A DNA stretch of 13,932 bases from Myxococcota bacterium. GTDB taxonomy: Bacteria; Myxococcota_A; Polyangia; HGW-17; JAJRWW01. Shown one piece after another: positions 2,426 to 13,504 of the stretch. The stretch spans positions 1 through 13,932 of the forward strand of contig JAJRWW010000627.1 in the NCBI GenBank assembly GCA_024276595.1. Reading direction: 5' to 3'. Position 1 is the stretch's first letter. Every line of letters begins with the position of its first letter. The notes below the pieces were generated by a model. The model was not told the DNA's origin. It searched no databases and was given only the letters and a program-made list of their open reading frames with translations. The position numbers and the translations under genes are program-made.

Positions 2426-3232
2426 CTAGTACTCGGTCTCCTTGCGAGGCTTGGTCACCGCGTCGATCATGGGATCGTATCCGCGGCGGCGGCGGGGGGA
2501 GTTGAGCTTGCGGCCCTCCAGCACCTTCTGGCGCATCCCGTTGTGAAAAAGCACGATGCAGAAGTTGCCGTAGATGGTGGACTTGTCTACCGCCCACATT
2601 CGGACGTCCTTGGCGCCTATCCACTCCACGTGGTGGAGACGGGGCTGACCGGCGAGGTCCTTTTTGAACACCGGCTGGCCCGCGCCAAAAGCCTTTATTA
2701 GCTTGCCCAGAAACTGCGGGAAGGTGAGCCCCTTGTAGTTCTTGTGGTCCGCGTTGAAGGCGATGAACTGCTTGTACAGCTTTCCGTTGTGAAAGAAGAA
2801 GAAGCGCTGCTGCTCCTTTTCCAAGAAGACGACGATGGACTCCTGGTTTCTGTGCCGAAACTGATCGTCCACGATGGACGAGTCCCAGCCGCTGCGCCTG
2901 CCGGTGAACTTGAAGTAGCTCTTTTTCACCTTCAGGAGCTTCTGCCTGAGCTCCTTGCGGAGCTTGTCCTGCTTGCGAGGTGAGGTCCTGGCCTGCCGGA
3001 TGCGCTTCAGATAGACCTTCCTCAGGTTGGCGGTGAGGAGCTTGATCACCTTGGAGGGGCCCAGGCCCCACTTGTACTTGCCAGTTAGCGCAGCAATGGC
3101 GGCGGCGGCTCGCTTGTTCACCTTTACCTTCTTTGTGACCTTTCGGCGGCGGCGCCGGCGGCGAGCATCGGCGTCCGTGGTCCAGGCCAACAGGAGGATG
3201 GATGTCAGGAGCAATACGGATACGCGTCTCAT
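2426..3232 (-). CDS. secreted, extremely basic (Lys/Arg-rich) protein of 268 aa; mature N-terminus RRRRRRRK; function unknown
   Basis: The internal ATG at 3232 is preceded by GGAGGGA. The N-terminus MRRVSVLLLTSILLLAWTTDADA is a classic Sec signal peptide with an AxA cleavage site. Two internal motifs are similar to each other: FFFFHNGKLYKQF and CIVLFHNGMRQKV. I recognise no family. The 96-aa upstream extension in the six-frame ORF is rejected. Confidence 0.6.
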   Translation of the reverse strand: MRRVSVLLLTSILLLAWTTDADARRRRRRRKVTKKVKVNKRAAAAIAALTGKYKWGLGPSKVIKLLTANLRKVYLKRIRQARTSPRKQDKLRKELRQKLLKVKKSYFKFTGRRSGWDSSIVDDQFRHRNQESIVVFLEKEQQRFFFFHNGKLYKQFIAFNADHKNYKGLTFPQFLGKLIKAFGAGQPVFKKDLAGQPRLHHVEWIGAKDVRMWAVDKSTIYGNFCIVLFHNGMRQKVLEGRKLNSPRRRRGYDPMIDAVTKPRKETEY

Positions 3233-3410
3233 GCTTCCCTCCGTCTGGAAGACGCTGTGATCTTCAGCCGCTGCATAGTAACAGGGCGGCCTTCCGGCCG
3301 CAAATCTTATCCGTGGACAAGCTCGCGCGTACCTGCCAGGGGCTGCCTCCTCGCCAGCGGCCTCGGGGGACGCAGCTATGGGGCTCTGACTTCCCCTTGG
3401 CGGCCAATAT

Positions 3411-4223
3411 TCAACGGCCCCGCGCCACCCGTGTCTTTCGCGCGCGGGGACGGTAGCCACGCCTGGCCACCCCACGCTTGAGATCCAGATAGGGTGTCCG
3501 GGAGTACATGGCCTCCTCACCCGGGCCGCCGTAGTCTATCCAGAAGGTCTTCTTTGCCCGCACGTCCAGGTGCATGTGGAAGCCGTTGGGGTAGTAGCCC
3601 ACGCCCACGTGGGAGTAGTGCCTGAGCAGGTAGTTGCGGATCCGAACGTTGGAGATGGCGTCGAAGTTGAAGTCGATTGCGTGACCTGTCACGTGCTTGC
3701 TGGTCTTGAGCCGGGCCACCACCTTGGGGCGGTTCCCGGAGAAGACCGACACCTGGGGTTGTCCGAAGTGCAGCCACAGGTCGTAGAGAATCACCAGCAG
3801 GCGCCAGTGTATCTTCTGGGCGCGGCCCGTGTGGGAGCAGCGCATGAACCGCGCGAAGCGCCTGAAGGCGGCCGCCCGGAGCTGCCCACGGGAGTCGTAG
3901 AGGCGGATCCTGATGGCCTCCCGGTTGTGCACGTGGTAAAGGGGCATGGAAGGCAGCCGCAGCAAGGCCCTGGCCCCTCTCCTCCCTCTTCTGCTCCGAC
4001 CCTTTCGCCTGGTCGCTCTCCTGGCCCTGCTCGTGATCCTGCGCACCGATCTCAGGCGCCTTCGATTGCGCAGGCGCCTCGCCGGACGCAGGCTCCGGTG
4101 ACCTCCCTCCCTTCGGACCCGCCGCACCTGGCGACCGCCGGGCACCGCCACGGACACGGCGGGCTCAGCCCCCAACAGGAGCAGCAGGCAGGGGAGCAGC
4201 AGGTGCATCTTCGGGGCTCTCAT
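3411..4223 (-). CDS. MepK/YcbK-family peptidoglycan endopeptidase (DUF882, peptidase M15A) with a Sec signal peptide and an Arg-rich region of about 55 aa, 27 of them Arg
   Basis: The ATG at 4223 is preceded by GGAGGA. The signal peptide reads MRAPKMHLLLPCLLLLLGAEPAVSVA. The catalytic region reads LYHVHNREAIRIRLYD...SGNRPKVVARL...KHVTGHAIDFNF...GVGYYPNGFHMHLDVRAKKTFW. This matches the YcbK/DUF882 consensus (HTGE..., SGYRSPxxN, SxHxxGxAxDF, GGVGYYPxSxFVHxDTGxxRxW). Confidence 0.8.
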   Translation of the reverse strand: MRAPKMHLLLPCLLLLLGAEPAVSVAVPGGRQVRRVRREGGHRSLRPARRLRNRRRLRSVRRITSRARRATRRKGRSRRGRRGARALLRLPSMPLYHVHNREAIRIRLYDSRGQLRAAAFRRFARFMRCSHTGRAQKIHWRLLVILYDLWLHFGQPQVSVFSGNRPKVVARLKTSKHVTGHAIDFNFDAISNVRIRNYLLRHYSHVGVGYYPNGFHMHLDVRAKKTFWIDYGGPGEEAMYSRTPYLDLKRGVARRGYRPRARKTRVARGR

Positions 4224-4400
4224 GGTTCCTCCAGGGATCTCCAGATTGGATGGACCACCGGAACCTGTCAATTTTCTCGCCCCCTTTTGCCCATCACGGG
4301 CATTGAACGGGCGGTGAAACTGGGGGCCATCTGTGCTATACAGCCTCTAGCACGTCGGTTTGGCGATGGGCGAAATTACGATCCTGAAGGAGGAATCGAG
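4224..4400. promoter_or_regulatory. divergent promoter region between the M15A peptidase gene (minus strand) and the acidic lipoprotein gene (plus strand)
   Basis: 177 bp of lower GC (ttttctcgcccccttttgcccatcacgggcattgaacg..., gcgaaattacgatcc) are flanked by two oppositely oriented starts. Each start has a GGAGG RBS. Confidence 0.35.
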
Positions 4401-5366
4401 ATGAGAACTAAGCTAGTAGCAGTAATGGCGGCCTTCACCCTGGCCCTCTCACTGGGAGCCGCGGCCGGCTGCAGCGACGACGACGTTGGCGAGATCTGCG
4501 ACAACGGCGTGGACGACGACGGCGACGGCCTCGCGGATTGCGACGACCCCCTCTGCGACATGGACGAGGCCTGCCAGCCCGTCTGTGGCGATGGCGTGGC
4601 CGAGGGTGACGAGGTGTGCGACACCAACGACCTGGCCGGCAACACCTGCGCATCCGAGGGCTTTGACGATGGCGACCTGGCCTGCAACGCCACATGTGAC
4701 GGCTTTGACGACAGCGCCTGCTACGACTACTTTTGCGGCGATGACGCGGCCGAGGGTACAGAGGAATGCGACGGCGTGGACCTGGCGAACACGACCTGCG
4801 AAGACCTCGGCTACCTGGGCGGCGACCTGGCCTGCGACACGGACTGCTTCTTCGACGAGTCCGGCTGCTTCGACACCGTGACCTGCAGCGACGCCAGCTT
4901 CATGGGCACAGGGGGCCAGGCCTTTGGTGGCGACAGCCAGAACGGCAACTACGACTGGTTATACCAGGAGCTGGTGGACCTGGGTGACGGGGCCACCTGG
5001 CTGCTCTCCATCGAGCTGTACGGCGACTTTGTAAATGGCGGAGGCGGAATCACCACGGGCGCACACGACGTCTCCGTGCCCCCCGAGGACAACTACGCCA
5101 CCTGCGCCTACTGCGTGCTCATGCGGCGCTGTGCAGACGCCCAGTGCAGCAACGTGGAGGCGGTCTTCTTCCCCACCGCCGGAACCCTCCAGCTCGATGT
5201 CCTGTCTCAGGCCGGCATGGGCTCGTTTCAGGGCAGCATCTCCGACTTCAACTGGGAGGAGGTCACCATCGACTCGTCCACCTACGAGTCCACCGCCGTG
5301 GTGGGCGGTGACTGCTTCAACCTGACCGCGGCATACACGGTGGACGCCACCGTGGACGCCATGTAG
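4401..5366 (+). CDS. acidic Cys-rich lipoprotein of 321 aa with Myxococcus-type cysteine-rich repeats and a C-terminal beta-rich domain of unknown function
   Basis: GAAGGAGG lies 7 nt upstream of the ATG. The signal peptide MRTKLVAVMAAFTLALSLGAAAGC ends in a candidate lipobox. An Asp-rich CDNGVDDDGDGLADCDDPLC module is followed by tandem repeats: VCGDGVAEGDEVCDTNDLAGNTC...GDLACNATCDGFDDSAC and FCGDDAAEGTEECDGVDLANTTC...GDLACDTDCFFDESGC. About 25% of residues are D or E. The 5' 277-codon extension in the six-frame ORF runs antisense to the peptidase gene and is rejected. Confidence 0.75.
   Translation: MRTKLVAVMAAFTLALSLGAAAGCSDDDVGEICDNGVDDDGDGLADCDDPLCDMDEACQPVCGDGVAEGDEVCDTNDLAGNTCASEGFDDGDLACNATCDGFDDSACYDYFCGDDAAEGTEECDGVDLANTTCEDLGYLGGDLACDTDCFFDESGCFDTVTCSDASFMGTGGQAFGGDSQNGNYDWLYQELVDLGDGATWLLSIELYGDFVNGGGGITTGAHDVSVPPEDNYATCAYCVLMRRCADAQCSNVEAVFFPTAGTLQLDVLSQAGMGSFQGSISDFNWEEVTIDSSTYESTAVVGGDCFNLTAAYTVDATVDAM
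4581..4868 (+). repeat. internal tandem duplication encoding two Cys-rich modules of about 46 aa inside the lipoprotein gene
   Basis: The repeat is visible at protein level: xCGDxxAEGxExCDxxDLAxxTCxxxGxxxGDLACxxxCxFDxSxC appears twice. It is degenerate at DNA level. Confidence 0.7.
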
Positions 5367-5375
5367 CCAGCTCTC

Positions 5376-5401
5376 GGCCGCCGCCGCCTGGCGGCGGCGC
5401 C
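5376..5401. terminator. GC-rich hairpin (GCCGCCGCC ... GGCGGCGGC) between the convergent stop codons at 5364-5366 and 5437-5439; candidate bidirectional terminator
   Basis: The inverted repeat ggccgccgccgcctggcggcggcgcc is read directly. No U-tract follows it. Confidence 0.3.
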
Positions 5402-5436
5402 TCCCATGCGCCCCATCCTCTCCCCTGCTCCAAACC

Positions 5437-8400
5437 CTACTGTGTGTCCAGCCCCTTGAGGGCGTCCAGCAGCTCACGGAGCTGGTTCAGCTCTCCGAGG
5501 GCCTGCTCGATCATCGCGTCCACGGCGGGATCCACCACGCCGGCCTTCTTCAAGCGCCGGTCGATGGTGCGGAGCGCGTCCACAACCCGGATGTCCATGG
5601 AGGGGGAGAGGGAGCGGAGCTGGCTCCGGATGGTGGCAGGCAGGGAGAAGCTGTGCTTTCCCCCGGGGGGAGAGGGATGGCCTGCCAGCTCTGGCTCCAG
5701 GGACTTGGACGCGAGCTGGGACCGACCCGCAGCCGCCGCAGGAGATGCCGGGGCAGCGCCCGGCGCCTGGGGGGGCGCATGGGGCCGCATGGGGCCGGCC
5801 GCCGGGGGTGGGGAGACCGCGCCCGCGCTGCTCCCTCCACCCCTGCCCGCCTGGGCGTACCGCTCCATGGCGGCCACCATGGCCTGCACCCCCTGGCTGA
5901 GCGCTGCGAGCTGCTCGGTCACCTGCCCGACCGCCTCCGTGTCCGCAGCCGGCCGCCGCGACTCACCCTCCGAGCCTGCGCTCGGGGCCCTCCGGCCAGA
6001 GAGGCTCTCCTCCAGCTTCTCCAGCAAGAGCGCCTGGATCTGGTTGGACTCTGCGGTCTTCTCCCTGTCCGCCTCAACCGCCCTGGAGGCGTCCTGGATC
6101 CGCTGGCTGATGTCGCCCAGCTTCTCCGAGACGAGGCCCAGGGTGCCGGTGACCCTTGTCACCGGGTCGTCCTCGGCGCCCCCCATGGAGCGCTGCCTGC
6201 GGAAGCCCTCCTTGATCTCCTCCCAGCGGGCGGCCTGCTCCTCGGTCATCCGATTCCGCAGCTCGGCCAGCTTCAGAAGGTTCTGCTCCGCGCCGGTGGT
6301 CAGGGACTGGGCCTCGCCCTGGTAGTGGTCGTCCAGCAGGCTCTCCAGCTCGGAGTCGTTCATTACGGGCAGGATCTTCTCCGCCAGCTTGTTCATGTTG
6401 CGATAGCTGCCCTGGAGCTGGAAGCGCGGCTCCGTGCGGTAGGCGTCGTCCTGGGCGGCGGAGTAGATGTACTGCTGGTTGACCGAGAGCAGGACCCGCT
6501 GCACCCGCTGCAGCTTCTCCAGGACGGAGAGCACATCCTTGAGCTCCACCGACGAGTAGGGGTGGCTGAGCTGGTCCGCCTGCACCTCCTCACCGGCGGC
6601 CATGCGCACCAGCTTGTACAGGTCCTCTGGGTCCCGCGTGGTGAGAGGCGACAGCACCGGGTTGGAGGTGAGGGCGTTCTCCATGTACGACAGGGCGAAT
6701 GCCTCCTCGCGGCCCTCGAGGATGTCACCCAGGTTGTAGGTGTCGGCGCGGTTGGCCAGCATGTCAGGGATCTGGAACTTCTCCCCCGACTCGGTGTAGG
6801 GGTTGCCAGCCATGCACACAGCGAACTTCTTTCCCCGGAAGTCGTAGGTGCGGGTCTTTCCTTTCCACACCCCCTCGATGCGTCGCTGGGCGTCGCAGAG
6901 GGAGATGAACTTCTGCAGCAGCTCGCTGCTTGTGTGCTGGATGTCGTCGATGTACAGCAGCACGTTGTTGCCCATCTCAAAGGCGAGGTTGATCTTCTCC
7001 ACCTCCTGGCGCGCGGTGGCGTTGGGAGCCTCGGAGGGGTCCAGGGAGAGGACCTGGTGGCCCAGAGCGGGGCCGTTGATCTTCATGAACACCAGCCCAA
7101 GCCTGTTGGCGATGTACTCCATGAGGGTGGTCTTGCCGTAGCCAGGGGGAGAGATGAGCAGCAGCATCCCCATGAGGTCCGTGCGCTTGTTCTTGCCCAG
7201 GGCACCTATCTGCTTGGCCAGGTTGTCGCCGATCAGGGGGAGATACACCTCACTGATGAGCTTGTTGCGCACGAAGGAGCTCATCACCTTTGGCATGTAC
7301 TCCGAGATCCGGAGCGCCTCCCGCTCCCGCTCCAGCAGGTCGTGCCGGAGCTCCCTGAAGCGCTGGAAGGCGACGACTCGCTCCCGGCGGAAGGTGCCCA
7401 GGCGGGTCATGAACTCGTCCAGCCTCAGGTGGAGCGTCCGGTTTACGATGCGTGGATGCTGGCCCAGCAGGCCCTCCACGTCCGCAGAGGTCAGAGCGTG
7501 GCTCACCGAGCGCTGCACCTTGGACTCGGTCAGGATGAGCATCACCGCCTCCCTCACGGCGTGGCGGTTTGCTCTGACAGCCTCGTCGCTGGCGACATCC
7601 ACGAAGGCGCCAAGCCAGGCCTCCGCAAGCTCGAAGCGCTCCTCCACGCTGTCGGCGAGGAGCCGGAGATCGTCTGTGAACCCACGGTCGTTCTTGGTCT
7701 TCCGCAGGTGCTTCATGAAGTCCTTGCGGAGCTGCTCCGCCTCGGCGCTGATGACGAGCTCCACCGGGTCGGACGCCAGCTCCTCTGCCAGGTACTGGCC
7801 GGCGAAGCGGGCCTCCTCCGGGTCCAGATGGATGGACTCGGCCTGGAAGAAAGCGGAGATCGCCTCCGAGAGCTCTCCGTACAGCTCCGCGTGGGCGGCG
7901 CTGGGGGCGAAGGTGTCCCGCAGGCGCGCGAGGGAGCGCGCCCGGCGAGTCCAGCGCTCGGCGCGCTCCCTGTCCTCGTAGTGCGCCCAGAACAGGTTGG
8001 CCGCTGCCCGGGAGGAGGAGGAGAAGCGCAGCAGCCCGGCGGACTGGTACAGGGTGAGCAGCTTCCCGAGGATGAGCGCCGCGTCCGCGTCGTGCAGCCC
8101 TCGTTCATAGCCCTCGTCGTAGGCCTCGCCGGCGTACTGGCGCACGATCTCCAGCAAGTCCGTCTCGGTGGCCGCGGCTGCCCGGAGCTGAGCCAGGCTG
8201 TGGTTGCCCCGCTCCAGCTCGGCGTCCGCCAGGATCTTGGCGGCCAGGTACTCCCCACGGTACACATCGGCGGTCTCGCTCACTAGCTGCTGATCCCACA
8301 GGTCCCGGGTCTGGGCAAACTCAGGGTCGTCGATTCTCTGGTAGAAGTCGGTGCCAGTGAGGTGCAGGTACATCTCACCGTCCCGGGGCACCATGGTGAG

Positions 8401-11040
8401 ATCCAGAGGCTGAGTGTTTACGCTGAAGCTGTGGCGGCCCAGCTTGATGGAGTCGCCACCGTCGGTGAAGATGTCCTCCCTGTCCCGCAGCCCCCTGGCA
8501 GCATCCTGGATGGCCCCCTTCAGCCGGGCCTCCACCTCGTCCGCCTTTACCGAGTCTCCCAGCTCCCGGAGGTCTGAGGAGAGATCCTTGAGCTTTGTGA
8601 CCATGGGGTCGGAGGCAAAGTAGGAGTTGAGCTCGTCCACGTCGGCGAAGGTGGCTGCGCGGCGGCTCACCGTCTGGAGGATTCGCTCGGCGGCCTGCAT
8701 CATGTTCCCGGCGCGGCGCTGGCGCGCGTCCAGGAGCTGCTGCTTCTTGGTGGAGAAGGCCTTGTAGACCTCCTCCCGCTTGGTGGAAAGATCCTCGATG
8801 AACTGGTCGAACTCGGCGTAGCGGCTCTCCAGCTCCTCCAGCGCCATCATGAGGCGCGACAGCTCGGAGTCACACTTGGCAGGGGTGTCCGCCAGACCCA
8901 GGGCGCTGGTGACGTTCTGGGAGAAGACGTTGAACTCGGCACCGAACTCGGCCACCGCCTCCGTGGAGAGCAGCTCCTTGCGACGGTTCTCCAGCAGCGC
9001 CCTGCAGCGGTTCAGGCTCCCGAGCACCTCCGAGATGCCCTCCAGGATCTGCGTGCGCTGGGTAGAGTCCTCGAGCTTCAGCCCCCCGACAACCTCCGTG
9101 AGCATCTGGAGCTGCTCGTTCATGGTCTCCACCCGCTGGCGCAGGGGCTCGGCCTCGGCCACCTTCTCGATGGCCTCGCTGGAGCTCACCAGCTCGGCGA
9201 TCTTTTCGTGGTAGGGAGCCAGGGCATCCTCCCCCAGCAGAAACCTCACGGTGTGGCCGGTGAGCTTTTCGAACTGCTCCACCACCCGGGCCTCCAGGCC
9301 ATCCACCCGGGCGACGTCAACGTGACGGAGATTGCGCAAGGTGATGAGCTGCCCGCGCTGCTTGCGCAGGGCCGCCAGCCCCTCCACGAAGGCGTCCGAG
9401 GTGGTCCAGGAGTCGGGCTTGAGGTCCCTCAGCAGCTCCGCAAGCTGCTTCTCCGCGCGGTCCACCGCCTGACCGGACTGGCGCCGCACCTCCTCCACCT
9501 TCTGGAACTCGTCCACGATGAGGCTGGCGGTGTCCTTTATCTCCTCCAGGGGTTTGCGGAGGTTGCCCACCTCATCTCGATCCAGCCAGTAGTGGTCGTC
9601 GAGCACCCGGGACACGGCAGCCACCAGGTCCTCGTAGATCTGGACCGTGGGCCTCTGCTCCTCCACGGCCCTGCGAATGGAGAGCATGTCCGAGATGCCG
9701 CGCACCAGGTCGGCGTTGCCGATCTTTTCCAGGTATGAGCCCGAGGAAGGGGCCCTGGCGGCAAACTCGTCACTGGTAAAGGGGGTCTGCCAGATCTGCA
9801 TGGGGTGAACCCGCGTGGGCTCGTCGCTCTCGGTGCGGAAGACCACCAGCTTCCCGTCGGGGAACAGACCAAAGCCGTTGCACCTGATCGGGTTCTGCAG
9901 CTCCTTGCGGATCATGTTATAGGGCAGCAGCACCGACCTGCCCTCCATGCGGCTGTGGAAGATGTACAGCACGTCCTCGCCGTTGGGCGAACGGATCATG
10001 CGCATGAACTCCAGGCTCTCGGTGCTCCCTTCGAAGGTCTTGGTCTCTCCCGACTGCAGGTGGTAGCCGCCGGGGAAGATGACCCCGTGGTCCTCGGGGA
10101 GCTGAACGCAGGCTTGACCGATGGCGTCTATGCGCTCGGCCCTCTTGGTGCGGGTGTTAAAGAGCAGGTATCGATAGTGCTCCTCCCGGTAGGGGAGCAC
10201 CTTGAAGAGCACCAGCACCCCAACCCGAGCGTAGAGGATCTCTGCGTCGTCCAGCGACTGGTCCGGGTCCTCCACCGGCTCCCGGTAGACCCCCAGGCCG
10301 TCCTCGGTGTTGTCCTCCACCTTGATGGTGAGGTCGCCGCCCACGGTCTCGATGAACACCTCGTCGTCGATGGAGATGTGGGGGTGACGGCCCGGCACAT
10401 GCTGCTCCCTGGTGGTGGGGACCCACTCGAAGTCGTGGGAGGGGGGGAAGACCTGCTCCCGCTCCCCCCTGTTGTCGATGTAGGTGACCTCGCTGCCATC
10501 GGGGGACACGGCCCACTGGAAGACCCTGATGTCAGAGACGGTGGCGCCGGTCCTGAAGACAGCCAGCAGCTTTTGACCCACGCGCCGGAGCTGCATGAGC
10601 TCGGTGTCCTTGTAGAACCGATACAGCTCGGAGAACTCGCTGATGAACTTGGGCGCCGCCAGGAAGGAGGCATCCACCGCCTCCAGCTTGAACCCATCAT
10701 CGGTCTGCTCGAAGGAGCGAAGAGAGAGCACATCCGAGACGTCAGTCTCCTTCTTCAGGCCCAAAAAGGCGTTGTAGCCAAAAAGCAGCCGGTCTCCCAC
10801 CTCCACGATGTCCCTGGGCACGCAGTTGTTCTCGGTGCGGATGCGCTCGTTGCCAATGATGGCCATCTGGGTGCCACCAAAAACCTTGATTCGCTCGGCG
10901 TTGAGGGCCTGAGCCTTTTCCCCCAGCCCCCTGGCCTGCTGCACCAGGCGGTCCCTGATGATCTCGTAGGTGCCCTGCTCGATGGCAGCGGCGCCCTCCG
11001 TCTCCTCCACGACGCCGGCGGCTTTTTCTTCAGCGGCCAT
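5437..11040 (-). CDS. giant coiled-coil AAA+ ATPase of about 1,867 aa. Layout: N-terminal globular domain (about aa 1-430) unassigned; coiled-coil-rich region (about aa 430-1250); AAA+ module (about aa 1250-1450); Pro/Ala/Gly-rich linker (about aa 1683-1795); conserved C-terminal helix
   Basis: The single 5.6-kb ORF has strong GC3 bias. The ATG at 11040 is preceded by GGGAGAGG; an in-frame GTG at 11043 is an alternative start. The P-loop LLLISPPGYGKTTLMEY is encoded at 7126-7152 and Walker B VLLYIDDIQH at 6943-6960. A downstream segment, AVCMAGNPYTESGEKFQIPDMLANRADTYNL, resembles sensor regions of MoxR/AAA_5 ATPases. No protease, nuclease or vWA motifs are seen. Confidence 0.85.
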   Translation of the reverse strand: MAAEEKAAGVVEETEGAAAIEQGTYEIIRDRLVQQARGLGEKAQALNAERIKVFGGTQMAIIGNERIRTENNCVPRDIVEVGDRLLFGYNAFLGLKKETDVSDVLSLRSFEQTDDGFKLEAVDASFLAAPKFISEFSELYRFYKDTELMQLRRVGQKLLAVFRTGATVSDIRVFQWAVSPDGSEVTYIDNRGEREQVFPPSHDFEWVPTTREQHVPGRHPHISIDDEVFIETVGGDLTIKVEDNTEDGLGVYREPVEDPDQSLDDAEILYARVGVLVLFKVLPYREEHYRYLLFNTRTKRAERIDAIGQACVQLPEDHGVIFPGGYHLQSGETKTFEGSTESLEFMRMIRSPNGEDVLYIFHSRMEGRSVLLPYNMIRKELQNPIRCNGFGLFPDGKLVVFRTESDEPTRVHPMQIWQTPFTSDEFAARAPSSGSYLEKIGNADLVRGISDMLSIRRAVEEQRPTVQIYEDLVAAVSRVLDDHYWLDRDEVGNLRKPLEEIKDTASLIVDEFQKVEEVRRQSGQAVDRAEKQLAELLRDLKPDSWTTSDAFVEGLAALRKQRGQLITLRNLRHVDVARVDGLEARVVEQFEKLTGHTVRFLLGEDALAPYHEKIAELVSSSEAIEKVAEAEPLRQRVETMNEQLQMLTEVVGGLKLEDSTQRTQILEGISEVLGSLNRCRALLENRRKELLSTEAVAEFGAEFNVFSQNVTSALGLADTPAKCDSELSRLMMALEELESRYAEFDQFIEDLSTKREEVYKAFSTKKQQLLDARQRRAGNMMQAAERILQTVSRRAATFADVDELNSYFASDPMVTKLKDLSSDLRELGDSVKADEVEARLKGAIQDAARGLRDREDIFTDGGDSIKLGRHSFSVNTQPLDLTMVPRDGEMYLHLTGTDFYQRIDDPEFAQTRDLWDQQLVSETADVYRGEYLAAKILADAELERGNHSLAQLRAAAATETDLLEIVRQYAGEAYDEGYERGLHDADAALILGKLLTLYQSAGLLRFSSSSRAAANLFWAHYEDRERAERWTRRARSLARLRDTFAPSAAHAELYGELSEAISAFFQAESIHLDPEEARFAGQYLAEELASDPVELVISAEAEQLRKDFMKHLRKTKNDRGFTDDLRLLADSVEERFELAEAWLGAFVDVASDEAVRANRHAVREAVMLILTESKVQRSVSHALTSADVEGLLGQHPRIVNRTLHLRLDEFMTRLGTFRRERVVAFQRFRELRHDLLEREREALRISEYMPKVMSSFVRNKLISEVYLPLIGDNLAKQIGALGKNKRTDLMGMLLLISPPGYGKTTLMEYIANRLGLVFMKINGPALGHQVLSLDPSEAPNATARQEVEKINLAFEMGNNVLLYIDDIQHTSSELLQKFISLCDAQRRIEGVWKGKTRTYDFRGKKFAVCMAGNPYTESGEKFQIPDMLANRADTYNLGDILEGREEAFALSYMENALTSNPVLSPLTTRDPEDLYKLVRMAAGEEVQADQLSHPYSSVELKDVLSVLEKLQRVQRVLLSVNQQYIYSAAQDDAYRTEPRFQLQGSYRNMNKLAEKILPVMNDSELESLLDDHYQGEAQSLTTGAEQNLLKLAELRNRMTEEQAARWEEIKEGFRRQRSMGGAEDDPVTRVTGTLGLVSEKLGDISQRIQDASRAVEADREKTAESNQIQALLLEKLEESLSGRRAPSAGSEGESRRPAADTEAVGQVTEQLAALSQGVQAMVAAMERYAQAGRGGGSSAGAVSPPPAAGPMRPHAPPQAPGAAPASPAAAAGRSQLASKSLEPELAGHPSPPGGKHSFSLPATIRSQLRSLSPSMDIRVVDALRTIDRRLKKAGVVDPAVDAMIEQALGELNQLRELLDALKGLDTQ
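5777..5796 (-). repeat. perfect 10-bp tandem duplication (gcatggggcc x2) inside the low-complexity linker coding region
   Basis: Read directly. It encodes GPMRPHAPP on the minus strand. The unit length is not a multiple of 3. Confidence 0.85.
6693..7293 (-). other. AAA+ ATPase core (Walker A and Walker B) of the giant protein
   Basis: Walker A is the GPPGxGKT-type SPPGYGKTT. Walker B is hhhhDD (LLYIDD), about 60 aa downstream. An MAGNP motif lies about 45 aa after that, as in MoxR/dynein-like AAA_5 domains. Confidence 0.7.
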
Positions 11041-11043
11041 CAC

Positions 11044-11171: not shown

Positions 11172-13346
11172 CTAAAGCTCGGCCTCGTCCACGCCCAGCT
11201 TCTTCGCCTCGGCGAGGAGCGACTGGAGCTTGGACTTGCCGGCATCGTCGGTCTTGAGCATCAGCTTGCCCAGCAGCCCAGAGAGGGTGAGGTTCTGCAG
11301 GTCGGCAGGCGAGATGGCTGAGTTTGAAAGCACCTGCTTGAGGTCCTCGGGCAAGTTGGCGCTCCTGTCCAGGTAGTCCTTGAACGCGGTGGAGGCGGCG
11401 CCGGAGCCCTTGAAGAAGCCGTCCACGCTCTTGCCGAGGGTCACGGAGTTCACGAGCCGCTCGAAGAACAGGTTCTCGCCGCCAACGATGTCGATCTTGG
11501 CGGTCTTGAGGGCCTCGGCCACGATCTCTGCCTGGGAGCGAGCGACCTCCTTGCGGGCCTCGATGCCCTGCAGCTCGATGGCGCGCTCGTTCTCCAGGCG
11601 CAGGCGGTACTCCTCGTGCCCCCGGCTGGCGTCGTCCAGGGCGCCCATGGCCCGGGCCTTCTCCTCCAGTCCGGAGGCCTCCGCCTCCAGCTTCAGTCGG
11701 ATGGCCTCGGCCTCGGCCATGCCCTGCTCCCGGGTGACCACCGCGGTGGAGAGCCCCTTCTCCTTGGAGACGACTGCCTCGGCCATGCCGTGCTTCTCCG
11801 TGGCGCCAGCGTCCACCTCCTTGACCTTGGCCCTGGCCTCCCCCTGCGCCTCGATGCCCCTGGCCTCCGCCTGCATCTTCTCCAGCAAGATCCGCGCCTC
11901 GGCCATGCCCACCTTCTCGATGGCGTCGGCGTCGGCGTTCTTCACGGTGACGGTGGCCAGACCGGCGGCGGCGGCCTCCGCCTGGGTCCCCTCGGCCAGG
12001 CGCATCTTGGCCTGGGCCTCCTTGTCGGAGACCTCGAGCTGTGCGTCGGCGAGCAGGAGCCTCTCCCGGGCGCGGAACTTGGCCGCCTCCTCGGCCGCCT
12101 CGGCCGCCTTGATGTCCTTCACCAGCTTCTCCTGGGCCTGGGCCTCGGCGGTGATGATGGTGGCCTCCTTGCTGCGCTTGGCCTCCTCCACCAGCCGCAA
12201 GGCCTTTATTCGCTCCTCCTCCTCGGCCTGGGTGCGCTCCACCGCCAGACGCTCTCGGATGACGTCGGCGATCTCCTTCTTCTCCCTCTCCACCTCTTTT
12301 TGCTTGGCTATGGTGCCCAGCTCGGTCTCCCGCTCCCTGGCGATGGCCTCCAGGGCCCGGTCCTTCTCTACCCGCTCGTTCTCCACTGCCACGACCCGCT
12401 CGCGGTTCTTCATGGCCACCGCCACCTGGCGGGCCTTGTTCTCCTCGTTGATGGCGATCTCCTCCTCGGTCTTGATGCGCGCCAGCTCTGCCTTGCGCCT
12501 CTCCTCTGCCTGGACCTTCTGGGTCTCTGCCGCCTCTCTGGCGCGCACGACGGCTATCTCCCGAGCCTGCTTCGCCTCGGCGTCCGCCTGCTGCCGCTCC
12601 AGCTCCAAGATGGCCTCTTTGGCCTCCACGTTCTGCTTGGTGATGAGCTTCCGCTCATTGTTCTCAAAGTCGTTGGTGCGAACGTTCTCGGACGCGGTCA
12701 GATCGGTGATCTTCCGGATGCCCTGGGCGTCCAGCACGTTCTTGGGGTCGAGGGACTCCAGGGGGGTCTGCTCCAGGTAGTCGATGGCGGCGTCCTCTAG
12801 CTGGTAGCCGTTGAGGTCCACGCCGATGACCTCGATGATCCGCTTGCGGAAGTCCTCCCGCTTTGTGTAAAGGTCCACGAAGTCGAGCTGCTTGCCCACG
12901 GTCTTGAGGGCCTCTGAGAACTTGGCATTGAAGAGCTCCTCCAGGGCCATCCGATCCGACGCGCGGGCGCAGCCAACCGACTGCGCCACCTGGATGACGT
13001 CATCGGTGGAGCGTCCGACCCGGACATAGAAGGTGACCTTGATGTCCGCCCGGATGTTGTCCTTGCAGATCATCCCATCCTTGCCCCGCCGGTCGATCTC
13101 TATGGTGTTGAGGGAGATGTCCATGATCTCCGCCTTGTTGTACACTGGCCAGACGAAGTGCCCGGTGAAGGCGACCTTCACCTTGCCCCGCGGGCTCGAC
13201 ACGATGAGCACCTTCCCCTGGGGCACCTTGCGATAGAAGCCCGCCAGGAACGTGGGAATGAGCAAGATCAGCGCGAGGATGGCGACCCCAACGATCACTA
13301 GCAGCGACATCAGAGGGCTGAGCCCCATGAGGGCAAAAACAGACAT
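11172..13346 (-). CDS. flotillin-like SPFH/Band 7 membrane protein (YqiK/FloT family), 724 aa. It has an N-terminal TM segment, an SPFH domain, and an EA-rich coiled-coil flotillin region of about 370 aa
   Basis: The ATG at 13346 is preceded by GAAGGAGG. The N-terminus MSVFALMGLSPLMSLLVIVGVAILALILLIPTFLAGFYRKVPQGKVLIVSS...VKVAFTGHFVWPVYNKAEIMDISLNTIEIDR...IRADIKVTFYVRV is a typical flotillin start: hairpin/TM, then SPFH beta-sheet. Long AEAxxA/ERxK repeats follow. I reject the 22-codon upstream extension (MTPPPPRRQRPP...). Confidence 0.9.
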   Translation of the reverse strand: MSVFALMGLSPLMSLLVIVGVAILALILLIPTFLAGFYRKVPQGKVLIVSSPRGKVKVAFTGHFVWPVYNKAEIMDISLNTIEIDRRGKDGMICKDNIRADIKVTFYVRVGRSTDDVIQVAQSVGCARASDRMALEELFNAKFSEALKTVGKQLDFVDLYTKREDFRKRIIEVIGVDLNGYQLEDAAIDYLEQTPLESLDPKNVLDAQGIRKITDLTASENVRTNDFENNERKLITKQNVEAKEAILELERQQADAEAKQAREIAVVRAREAAETQKVQAEERRKAELARIKTEEEIAINEENKARQVAVAMKNRERVVAVENERVEKDRALEAIARERETELGTIAKQKEVEREKKEIADVIRERLAVERTQAEEEERIKALRLVEEAKRSKEATIITAEAQAQEKLVKDIKAAEAAEEAAKFRARERLLLADAQLEVSDKEAQAKMRLAEGTQAEAAAAGLATVTVKNADADAIEKVGMAEARILLEKMQAEARGIEAQGEARAKVKEVDAGATEKHGMAEAVVSKEKGLSTAVVTREQGMAEAEAIRLKLEAEASGLEEKARAMGALDDASRGHEEYRLRLENERAIELQGIEARKEVARSQAEIVAEALKTAKIDIVGGENLFFERLVNSVTLGKSVDGFFKGSGAASTAFKDYLDRSANLPEDLKQVLSNSAISPADLQNLTLSGLLGKLMLKTDDAGKSKLQSLLAEAKKLGVDEAEL

Positions 13347-13504
13347 GTCCCGGACCTCCTTCGTCCCAAGAACCCGTGGGGGTCTTTGTCGTCTGGGCGG
13401 GGGTGGCGTCACGAGGAGCCCGTCCCCTGCTGGGATCTACGCCTCTCCCCGCCCCGCTGTCAAGGCCAAGTAGCTGCGGGGAGAGATCCCTGGCGGGGCC
13501 GAGG

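Follow-up and report, generated by a model that had tools for sequence, protein, structure and literature searches.

The window analyzed here, a 13,932-nucleotide stretch of DNA from a member of the Myxococcota (contig JAJRWW010000627.1), encodes at 2426–3232 on the minus strand a polycationic exported protein that we refer to, together with its family of homologues, as FAM. The gene is real and conserved, and FAM is an undescribed family found in Myxococcota (soil and sediment bacteria), mainly in the class Polyangia. Genes of this family are linked to genes for DUF882 peptidoglycan endopeptidases, and the two proteins co-vary in net charge. What is unusual here is the paired supercharging of the two neighbors, and a poly-Arg early mature region that is accompanied by an acidic, putatively compensating signal-peptide c-region. 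FAM is best classed with uncharacterized accessory-type proteins that are exported and whose genes are linked to that of a peptidoglycan hydrolase. We tentatively favor, at a little short of an even chance, a reading in which FAM is a non-catalytic exported partner of the DUF882 peptidase, with both proteins held electrostatically on a polyanionic layer of the envelope.

The FAM family and its linkage to DUF882 peptidases

FAM is encoded by an intact open reading frame of 268 codons (268 aa; the coordinates include the stop codon). Translation bears out the coordinates, reading frame, predicted AxA cleavage site and RRRRRRRK mature start given in a first-pass annotation of this DNA, and places the gene on the minus strand. 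A Shine-Dalgarno-like GGAGGG (3237–3242, minus strand) precedes the ATG (3232–3230) with a spacing of 4 nt, and homologues use the same start Met (MRR or MKR). No match to FAM was found among Pfam, NCBIfam, PHROGs and PADLOC profiles; comparison of 74 members with Pfam yields only noise even at E ≤ 10, and the family profile matches no PDB sequence at E ≤ 10. The earlier statement that no family could be recognized holds for all of these collections, and as judged from these comparisons no described family contains FAM.

A word-indexed search recovered 168 full-length homologues (E ≤ 1e-3), all of them named "hypothetical" and none with a Pfam domain, and an exhaustive profile search recovered 707 cluster representatives (clusters at 50% identity) at E ≤ 1e-3 and 530 at E ≤ 1e-10. 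Homologues cover 100% of the target down to about 35% identity. Scanning one genome per species gave 135 FAM-encoding loci, of which 80 were kept, all from metagenome-assembled genomes; nearly all of these carry the labels Polyangia, Kofleriaceae, Haliangiales, Nannocystineae, Polyangiaceae, Myxococcales and "Deltaproteobacteria", and four are labeled "Pseudomonadota bacterium." An alignment of 74 sequences is collinear over the full length, with 14 invariant and about 30 nearly invariant columns, the former including W116, S119, E131, K154 and N223 and the latter H201, D216 and C225. All of the family hallmarks (signal peptide, basic tail, a helix with the motif L-x-G-K-[FY]-K-W-G, and the sheet-domain invariants) are present in the target. 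A Rosetta-stone search found no fusion of FAM to a peptidase; the sole fusion found is with a bicupin, in the 681-aa member P0179, which is fused to the C-terminal half of a bicupin.

The gene directly upstream of FAM (3411–4223, minus strand; 270 aa from an ATG at 4223, preceded by GGAGG at 4228–4232) matches the DUF882/Peptidase_M15_2 family (Pfam PF05951, E 9.7e-11, 42.1 bits against a cut-off of 27), as well as a PHROG phage endolysin family (E 6.5e-9). Its catalytic M15 domain (3558–3947) retains the metal-ligand motifs SKHVTGHAID and FHMHLD (H..D and H ligands) and is separated from the signal peptide by an Arg-rich, low-complexity linker of about 65 residues (approximately aa 27–92; 3948–4145); the product has a net charge of +54 and a pI of 12.0. 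It belongs to the same family as MepK (YcbK), the L,D-endopeptidase of E. coli and Salmonella, and shares its metal-ligand motifs, but is not a MepK equivalog (NCBIfam NF053624, 34.6 bits against a cut-off of 185 bits), from which it differs by the Arg-rich linker and the net charge. E. coli MepK cleaves 3-3 mDAP-mDAP cross-links in the periplasm and is a Tat substrate (PMC8262268), whereas the peptidase in the window has its own Sec-type signal peptide that lacks an RR pair and any convincing Tat motif. A literature search turned up no partner protein for MepK. In the polycationic lineages, the pre-catalytic linkers of DUF882 partners consist of tandem low-complexity basic repeats (HARKRT repeated seven times, KKITKK and PRRL(H/R)K; loci L011, 8661–9824; L021, 5289–6428; and L006, 8587–9561), which suggests that the basic linkers expanded by repeat slippage. 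There is no terminator-like or sigma-70-like site in the 178 bp that separate the peptidase gene from FAM (3233–3410), and the fold z-score of this stretch is -0.9.

To describe the neighborhoods, genes were typed with hidden Markov models built from the first loci and run over all fetched loci. In 19 of the 48 species-level loci with enough upstream sequence, the 8 kb upstream of FAM contain a DUF882 gene on the same strand, and in 13 of 74 species-level loci this gene is directly adjacent to FAM. This linkage persists to about 35% identity and, by our own estimate with an assumed copy number, is far above chance for a gene present in one to few copies in a genome of about 10 Mb. It also survives rearrangement of the operon. 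In one arrangement, found in the window and in 12 other species, the DUF882 gene sits directly upstream of FAM; where the two are not adjacent, the distance between them is often 6 kb, with the DUF882 gene as the first of a seven-gene cluster in the order DUF882, an HZS_alpha/CxxCH lipoprotein (~740 aa), a HEAT protein (~285 aa), an HZS_alpha/CxxCH protein (~1000 aa), FAM, PEGA and CarboxypepD_reg. The products of this cluster all carry signal peptides or lipoboxes, that of the CarboxypepD_reg gene being a lipoprotein. The cluster occurs in Polyangia at L001 (2967–14119) and also at L003, L012, L020, L023, L030, L031, L044 and L078; we know of no published description of a seven-gene DUF882-FAM-PEGA envelope cluster.

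Two further arrangements lack DUF882. In one, FAM lies behind the propeller-HEAT-propeller trio of the cluster, with mutS or other genes upstream; we considered a DUF882 gene hidden upstream of the propeller gene in the Kofleriaceae and Haliangiales loci, and found those same upstream genes in its place. In the other, FAM lies between a divergent Ser/Thr kinase gene and a gene for a GlmM-like phosphohexomutase, or stands alone. In nine species (L017, L035, L036, L038, L039, L040, L046, L048 and L049), the gene that comes after FAM on the same strand is a four-domain GlmM-like PGM_PMM gene; FAM itself is mostly near position 10000–10800 of these loci (6308–7348 in L048), and a divergent Ser/Thr kinase gene precedes it in L017, L040, L046, L048 and L049, plus L028. 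This kinase/GlmM-like setting is a second recurrent cell-envelope context of FAM, without DUF882.

The two proteins are also linked through their charge. The predicted mature FAM of the window has a net charge of +45 and a pI of 11.1–11.2, with +13 in the tail, +18 in the helices and +11 in the sheet domain. The first-pass annotation had described a Lys/Arg-rich region of about 120 aa, and residues 24–143 do contain 40 K/R against 8 D/E; the basic character is not confined to that region, however, as the sheet domain shows. Seven consecutive Arg codons (CGC, CGG and CGA) followed by Lys come directly after the predicted cleavage site, and close homologues keep the run at 6 to 10 Arg, so it is not a product of chance. 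Most members of the family are near neutral (mature net charge -3 to +5, pI 6–9), yet these still begin A|KKK or A|KGK (the bar marks the cleavage site) and have tails of +1 to +6, mostly +3 to +6; the poly-Arg run is thus a lineage-specific exaggeration of a short basic tail found family-wide. The target falls in a subset with mature net charges of +20 to +47, in which tail, helices and sheet domain are all basic. This polycationic state appears at no fewer than three places (at least three) on a neighbor-joining tree, and DUF882 is adjacent to FAM in both large polycationic clades.

Net charges of the FAM core (aa 45–245) and of the DUF882 catalytic region are correlated (Spearman 0.81, n = 25), as are their charges per 100 residues (Spearman 0.77, n = 24), and crude phylogenetically independent contrasts give r = 0.60 (p = 0.002). 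A basic shift of the whole proteome is rejected as a full explanation, because genes overall do not differ in charge between polycationic and neutral loci (p = 0.73). Other exported neighbors reach at most +8.2 per 100 aa, compared with +16.8 for FAM and +20 for DUF882, and the other exported proteins of the window are acidic (net -15 and -65). The functional pair proposed in the first-pass annotation is supported by the linkage frequencies, the co-variation of charge and the gap devoid of a terminator-like site; that annotation had named a complete absence of co-occurrence between FAM homologues and DUF882 genes as the observation that would speak against it, and a DUF882 gene lies upstream in 19 of the 48 loci.

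Predicted export signal and fold

By rule-based inspection, the FAM signal peptide (aa 1–23; 3164–3232) consists of an MRR n-region, a Leu-rich hydrophobic core of 14 residues (VSVLLLTSILLLAW) and the acidic c-region TTD-A-D-A, and the N-terminus as a whole reads MRRVSVLLLTSILLLAWTTDADA|RRRRRRRKVTKKVKVNKR. It has the features of a Sec-type signal cleavable by signal peptidase I, namely a basic n-region, a core of 7–15 residues and small residues at -3 and -1, and this arrangement is conserved across the family, with distant members having a canonical PALA|K. On this basis, FAM is probably cleaved after Ala23 and periplasmic. Export by Tat was considered and rejected as unlikely, with no S/T-R-R-x-F-L-K motif after an extended n-region, the RR pair at residues 2–3 leaving no n-region, and the core being Leu-rich instead of weakly hydrophobic; orthologues carry KR, TR or RL at that position. 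The FAM protein of the window has no L-x-x-C lipobox at the end of its signal peptide, its sequence having no Cys before residue 225. A distant member, P0224 (396 aa), is a lipoprotein with the lipobox LFGC and a long Lys-rich linker before the conserved core. The special shared mode of export or delivery that the first-pass annotation envisaged for FAM and the peptidase is not borne out, as both have ordinary Sec-type signal peptides with no convincing Tat motif; nor do the two genes share a poly-Arg start, since what follows the signal peptide of the peptidase is the Arg-rich linker and not a homopolymeric run.

Basic residues immediately after a signal peptide hinder Sec export in E. coli. 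FAM departs from the low early-mature charge of that organism, with +8 in its first eight mature residues. Among members with a polybasic tail (net +6 or more over the first 12 mature residues), 37 of 44 have an Asp or Glu within the six residues before the first K/R, against 11 of 91 other members (Fisher p = 2e-16, a test not corrected for phylogeny), typically in the form DxDA|RRRR. A plausible explanation is that the acidic DxDA c-region is a compensation that keeps export working despite the charge that follows. A search for a hydrophobic core, a small residue and at least five consecutive K/R gave 25 matches among the 9,198 open reading frames of all fetched loci, of which 20 are FAM, one is a DUF882 protein and one is the cluster PEGA protein of a polycationic lineage, such that this signal peptide-then-poly-K/R pattern is almost confined to the FAM family. 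In the polycationic lineage of L027 (13461–15098), the signal peptide of the cluster PEGA protein ends in DPASA and is followed by RKRKRRKKPK, so that three cluster proteins share an acidic c-region and a polybasic start.

The first-pass annotation had also proposed structural prediction, and AlphaFold2 with the family alignment gave a confident model of full-length FAM (pLDDT 88.9, pTM 0.79). After the signal helix comes a disordered polybasic tail (aa 24–44, RRRRRRRKVTKKVKVNKRAAA; 3101–3163, with the Arg7-Lys run at 3140–3163), which is modeled with low confidence over the poly-Arg run (pLDDT 57–66 for aa 1–30). The helices span residues 40–50, 59–80 and 85–104, and the helical region (aa 45–105; 2918–3100) holds the conserved L-x-G-K-[FY]-K-W-G motif together with Q88, D89 and R92; its charge is about -2 in neutral orthologues. 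An alpha/beta domain follows (aa 106–245; 2498–2917) in which a seven-stranded antiparallel sheet is combined with two helices, and most of the invariant residues lie here. The protein closes with a basic C-terminal tail (aa 246–268, ending …SPRRRRGYDPMIDAVTKPRKETEY; 2426–2497 with the stop codon) that has low confidence (pLDDT 61–73) and contains a conserved LIDAVT. The repeated FHNG motif reported earlier does occur twice (aa 147–150 and 229–232), but an internal duplication behind it is rejected, because the two halves are not significantly similar (E = 0.12) and the second copy falls in a stretch that is variable in the family and is not conserved.

The nearest solved folds are all distant: the double-wing domain of YdcD (PDB 8wj5), DUF4309 (B. 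subtilis YjgB, PDB 4ygt) and CAP_assoc_N (PDB 4h0a and 4ifa). The YdcD domain is encoded downstream of rhsE in E. coli. Literature searches on YdcD and the double-wing domain, and on DUF882 in Myxococcus, yielded nothing useful. When the FAM sheet domain alone is compared with DUF4309 and CAP_assoc_N, the Z score drops to 5.5–5.7, the same as for the unrelated UTRA, MucB/RseB and PsbP-like folds. In ECOD, DUF4309 and CAP_assoc_N belong to a yfeY-like group that has been merged with the BLIP-like group into Cystatin/monellin, which puts them together with the BLIP and PepSY enzyme inhibitors, and some members are inhibitors (PMC11836899). None of the models of the Pfam clan PepSY (yfeY-like/BLIP-like) matches any of the 74 FAM members at E ≤ 10.

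The proposed partnership and its rivals

The partnership that we favor would work as follows. FAM would be exported through its Sec-type signal peptide and cleaved after Ala23 (ADA|R), with the acidic DxDA end of the signal peptide offsetting the +8 early mature region and so preserving export. The mature protein released in this way would begin with a polybasic tail that is disordered, continue with three helices and end in the seven-stranded antiparallel-sheet domain. It would then work with the DUF882 (M15, MepK-like) peptidoglycan endopeptidase, binding either the enzyme or its substrate layer, in a role that is most likely binding or regulatory and not enzymatic. The supercharging (+45 and +54) would hold both proteins on a common polyanion, for which peptidoglycan, anionic phospholipid and the phosphates of lipopolysaccharide (LPS) are candidates; the identity of the polyanion, like any regulatory effect of FAM, is conjectural. 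A conserved hyper-acidic lipoprotein was considered as a polyanionic partner and rejected: the acidic lipoproteins of the window, L004 and L006 are not homologous, so there is no conserved acidic partner. The one in the window (4380–5366, plus strand) is divergent from the hyper-basic pair, has Cys repeats, a net charge of -65 and a pI of 4.1, and gives weak matches to an acidic double-disulfide repeat and to DUF4215.

Several observations weigh against this reading. About 60% of the loci with enough upstream sequence have no nearby DUF882 gene, and some of the loci that lack one hold polycationic FAM members (L008/L086, L065 and L070); the pairing is not obligatory or universal. The co-variation of charge rests on about two main independent transitions, and the sign is shared by just 16 of 23 contrasts (p = 0.09). 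Neighbors with signal peptides show a slight basic shift in polycationic loci (median +2.3 versus -0.5 per 100 aa, p = 0.007). In L004, from a close relative, a TamB protein of 1519 aa with a net charge of +119 and a pI of 11.3 (4270–8829) lies divergently beside the DUF882-FAM pair, from which it follows that some wider effect of lineage on charge exists; a 517-aa membrane protein nearby (14173–15726) has a net charge of +70, and together these two hint that supercharging in this lineage affects a subset of the envelope proteins. Two proteins of like charge cannot associate by way of their charged surfaces. Given the hindrance of Sec export by early mature basic residues in E. coli, cleavage and export of FAM are assumed, and the partnership itself would follow from gene linkage and the co-variation of charge, both of them read from sequence.

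Many of these points can be accommodated if FAM is a conserved envelope protein with an unrelated role of its own, its adjacency to DUF882 being inherited gene order and its charge an adaptation of the lineage, confined to some of the proteins that span the periplasm or associate with membranes, instead of a sign of partnership. The many FAM loci without DUF882, the frequent 6-kb distance to a DUF882 gene at the head of the seven-gene cluster, the very basic TamB and membrane protein of L004, the modest basic shift of exported neighbors and the incomplete agreement among contrasts all count in favor of this explanation. Nonetheless, we consider it unlikely, if the most serious of the alternatives: the DUF882 linkage is well above the estimated chance level and survives operon rearrangement, the charge density of FAM and DUF882 is about twice that of any other exported neighbor, the contrasts give a significant correlation, and the adjacent arrangement is present in both large polycationic clades.

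A secreted antibacterial pair, in which the polycationic DUF882 hydrolase is a weapon against prey or competitors and FAM is an immunity protein (a safety inhibitor) or a co-secreted helper, with the basic tracts binding or crossing anionic prey envelopes, seems rather improbable. The gene arrangement is suggestive, with a hydrolase gene followed by a small, co-oriented gene for an exported protein after a gap with no terminator-like site; further points in its favor are the match of the peptidase to a phage endolysin family, the predatory habit of many Myxococcota, and the ability of engineered, polycation-tagged endolysins to get across outer membranes. However, FAM consists of orthologues conserved class-wide with 14 invariant columns, its neighbors include housekeeping genes (glmM-like and mutS), and it often has no adjacent hydrolase, all of which is unlike fast-evolving immunity genes. 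With about 60% of loci lacking a nearby DUF882 gene, FAM does not behave like an immunity gene, which would track its toxin and be variable or patchy. The Sec signal peptide of the peptidase implies entry into the producer's own periplasm, inhibitor pairs are usually complementary and not alike in charge, and neutral orthologues of both genes sit in the envelope cluster.

A more elaborate proposal, which we rate as a long shot, is that DxDA|(R/K)n is a charge-coded tag for delivery or retention, borne by DUF882, FAM and some PEGA proteins, and that the pair forms a two-component lytic system of predatory Myxococcota; its further element, equally doubtful, is that the oligo-arginine tracts bind and breach anionic prey envelopes as a natural counterpart of polycation-tagged endolysins. 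Polycation-tagged endolysins ("Artilysins"), like oligo-arginine cell-penetrating peptides, are synthetic, and the endolysin fusions are applied from outside. The likeness, 7–10 basic residues on or beside a peptidoglycan hydrolase, is a functional analogy only; the tracts described here have arisen in nature, come after Sec signal peptides, and are found both on a hydrolase and on its putative non-catalytic partner.

The weakest alternative, an uncleaved reverse anchor (N-out/C-in) with the poly-Arg run at the cytoplasmic face and the FAM body a cytoplasmic polycation that binds nucleic acid or membrane, draws on the positive-inside rule, by which the more basic flank (here +8 on the C-terminal side against +2 on the N-terminal side) stays cytoplasmic (PMC9360617), and on a net charge that would fit nucleic-acid binding, but is very unlikely given a hydrophobic core of just 14 residues followed by a canonical A-x-A site, neutral members with textbook cleavable signal peptides, a member that is a lipoprotein, cluster partners that are all exported, a peptidase whose substrate lies outside the cytoplasm, and a co-evolving acidic c-region that resembles an export-preserving compensation.

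Other neighbors and significance of the family

Farther upstream on the minus strand, the window encodes a 1868-aa protein (5437–11043) with DUF3686, DUF7902 and AAA domains and a weak match to PADLOC LmuB (E 4e-5). Directly upstream of it is a gene for a 746-aa protein (11172–13412, minus strand) whose N-terminus is flotillin/SPFH-like in appearance, the sole database support being a match to NCBIfam FloT that is far below threshold (E 0.037, 13 bits against a cut-off of 700). These two may form a functional pair that is unrelated to FAM.

FAM is a sizeable unannotated family (707 clusters) for which there is both a confident model and a concrete genomic partner, and it gives work on the control or positioning of DUF882/MepK-type endopeptidases in bacteria other than enterobacteria a testable starting point. 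The paired supercharging of neighboring exported proteins shows, with unusual clarity, net charge co-evolving in nature, and suggests a common polyanionic target in the envelope. Natural, conserved Sec-type precursors with +8 directly after the cleavage site and a co-evolving acidic c-region run against the early-mature-charge rule of E. coli, and FAM precursors are a ready-made system for asking how bacteria get around that constraint. Should the predatory reading be true, these proteins would represent natural designs for endolysins that cross outer membranes.

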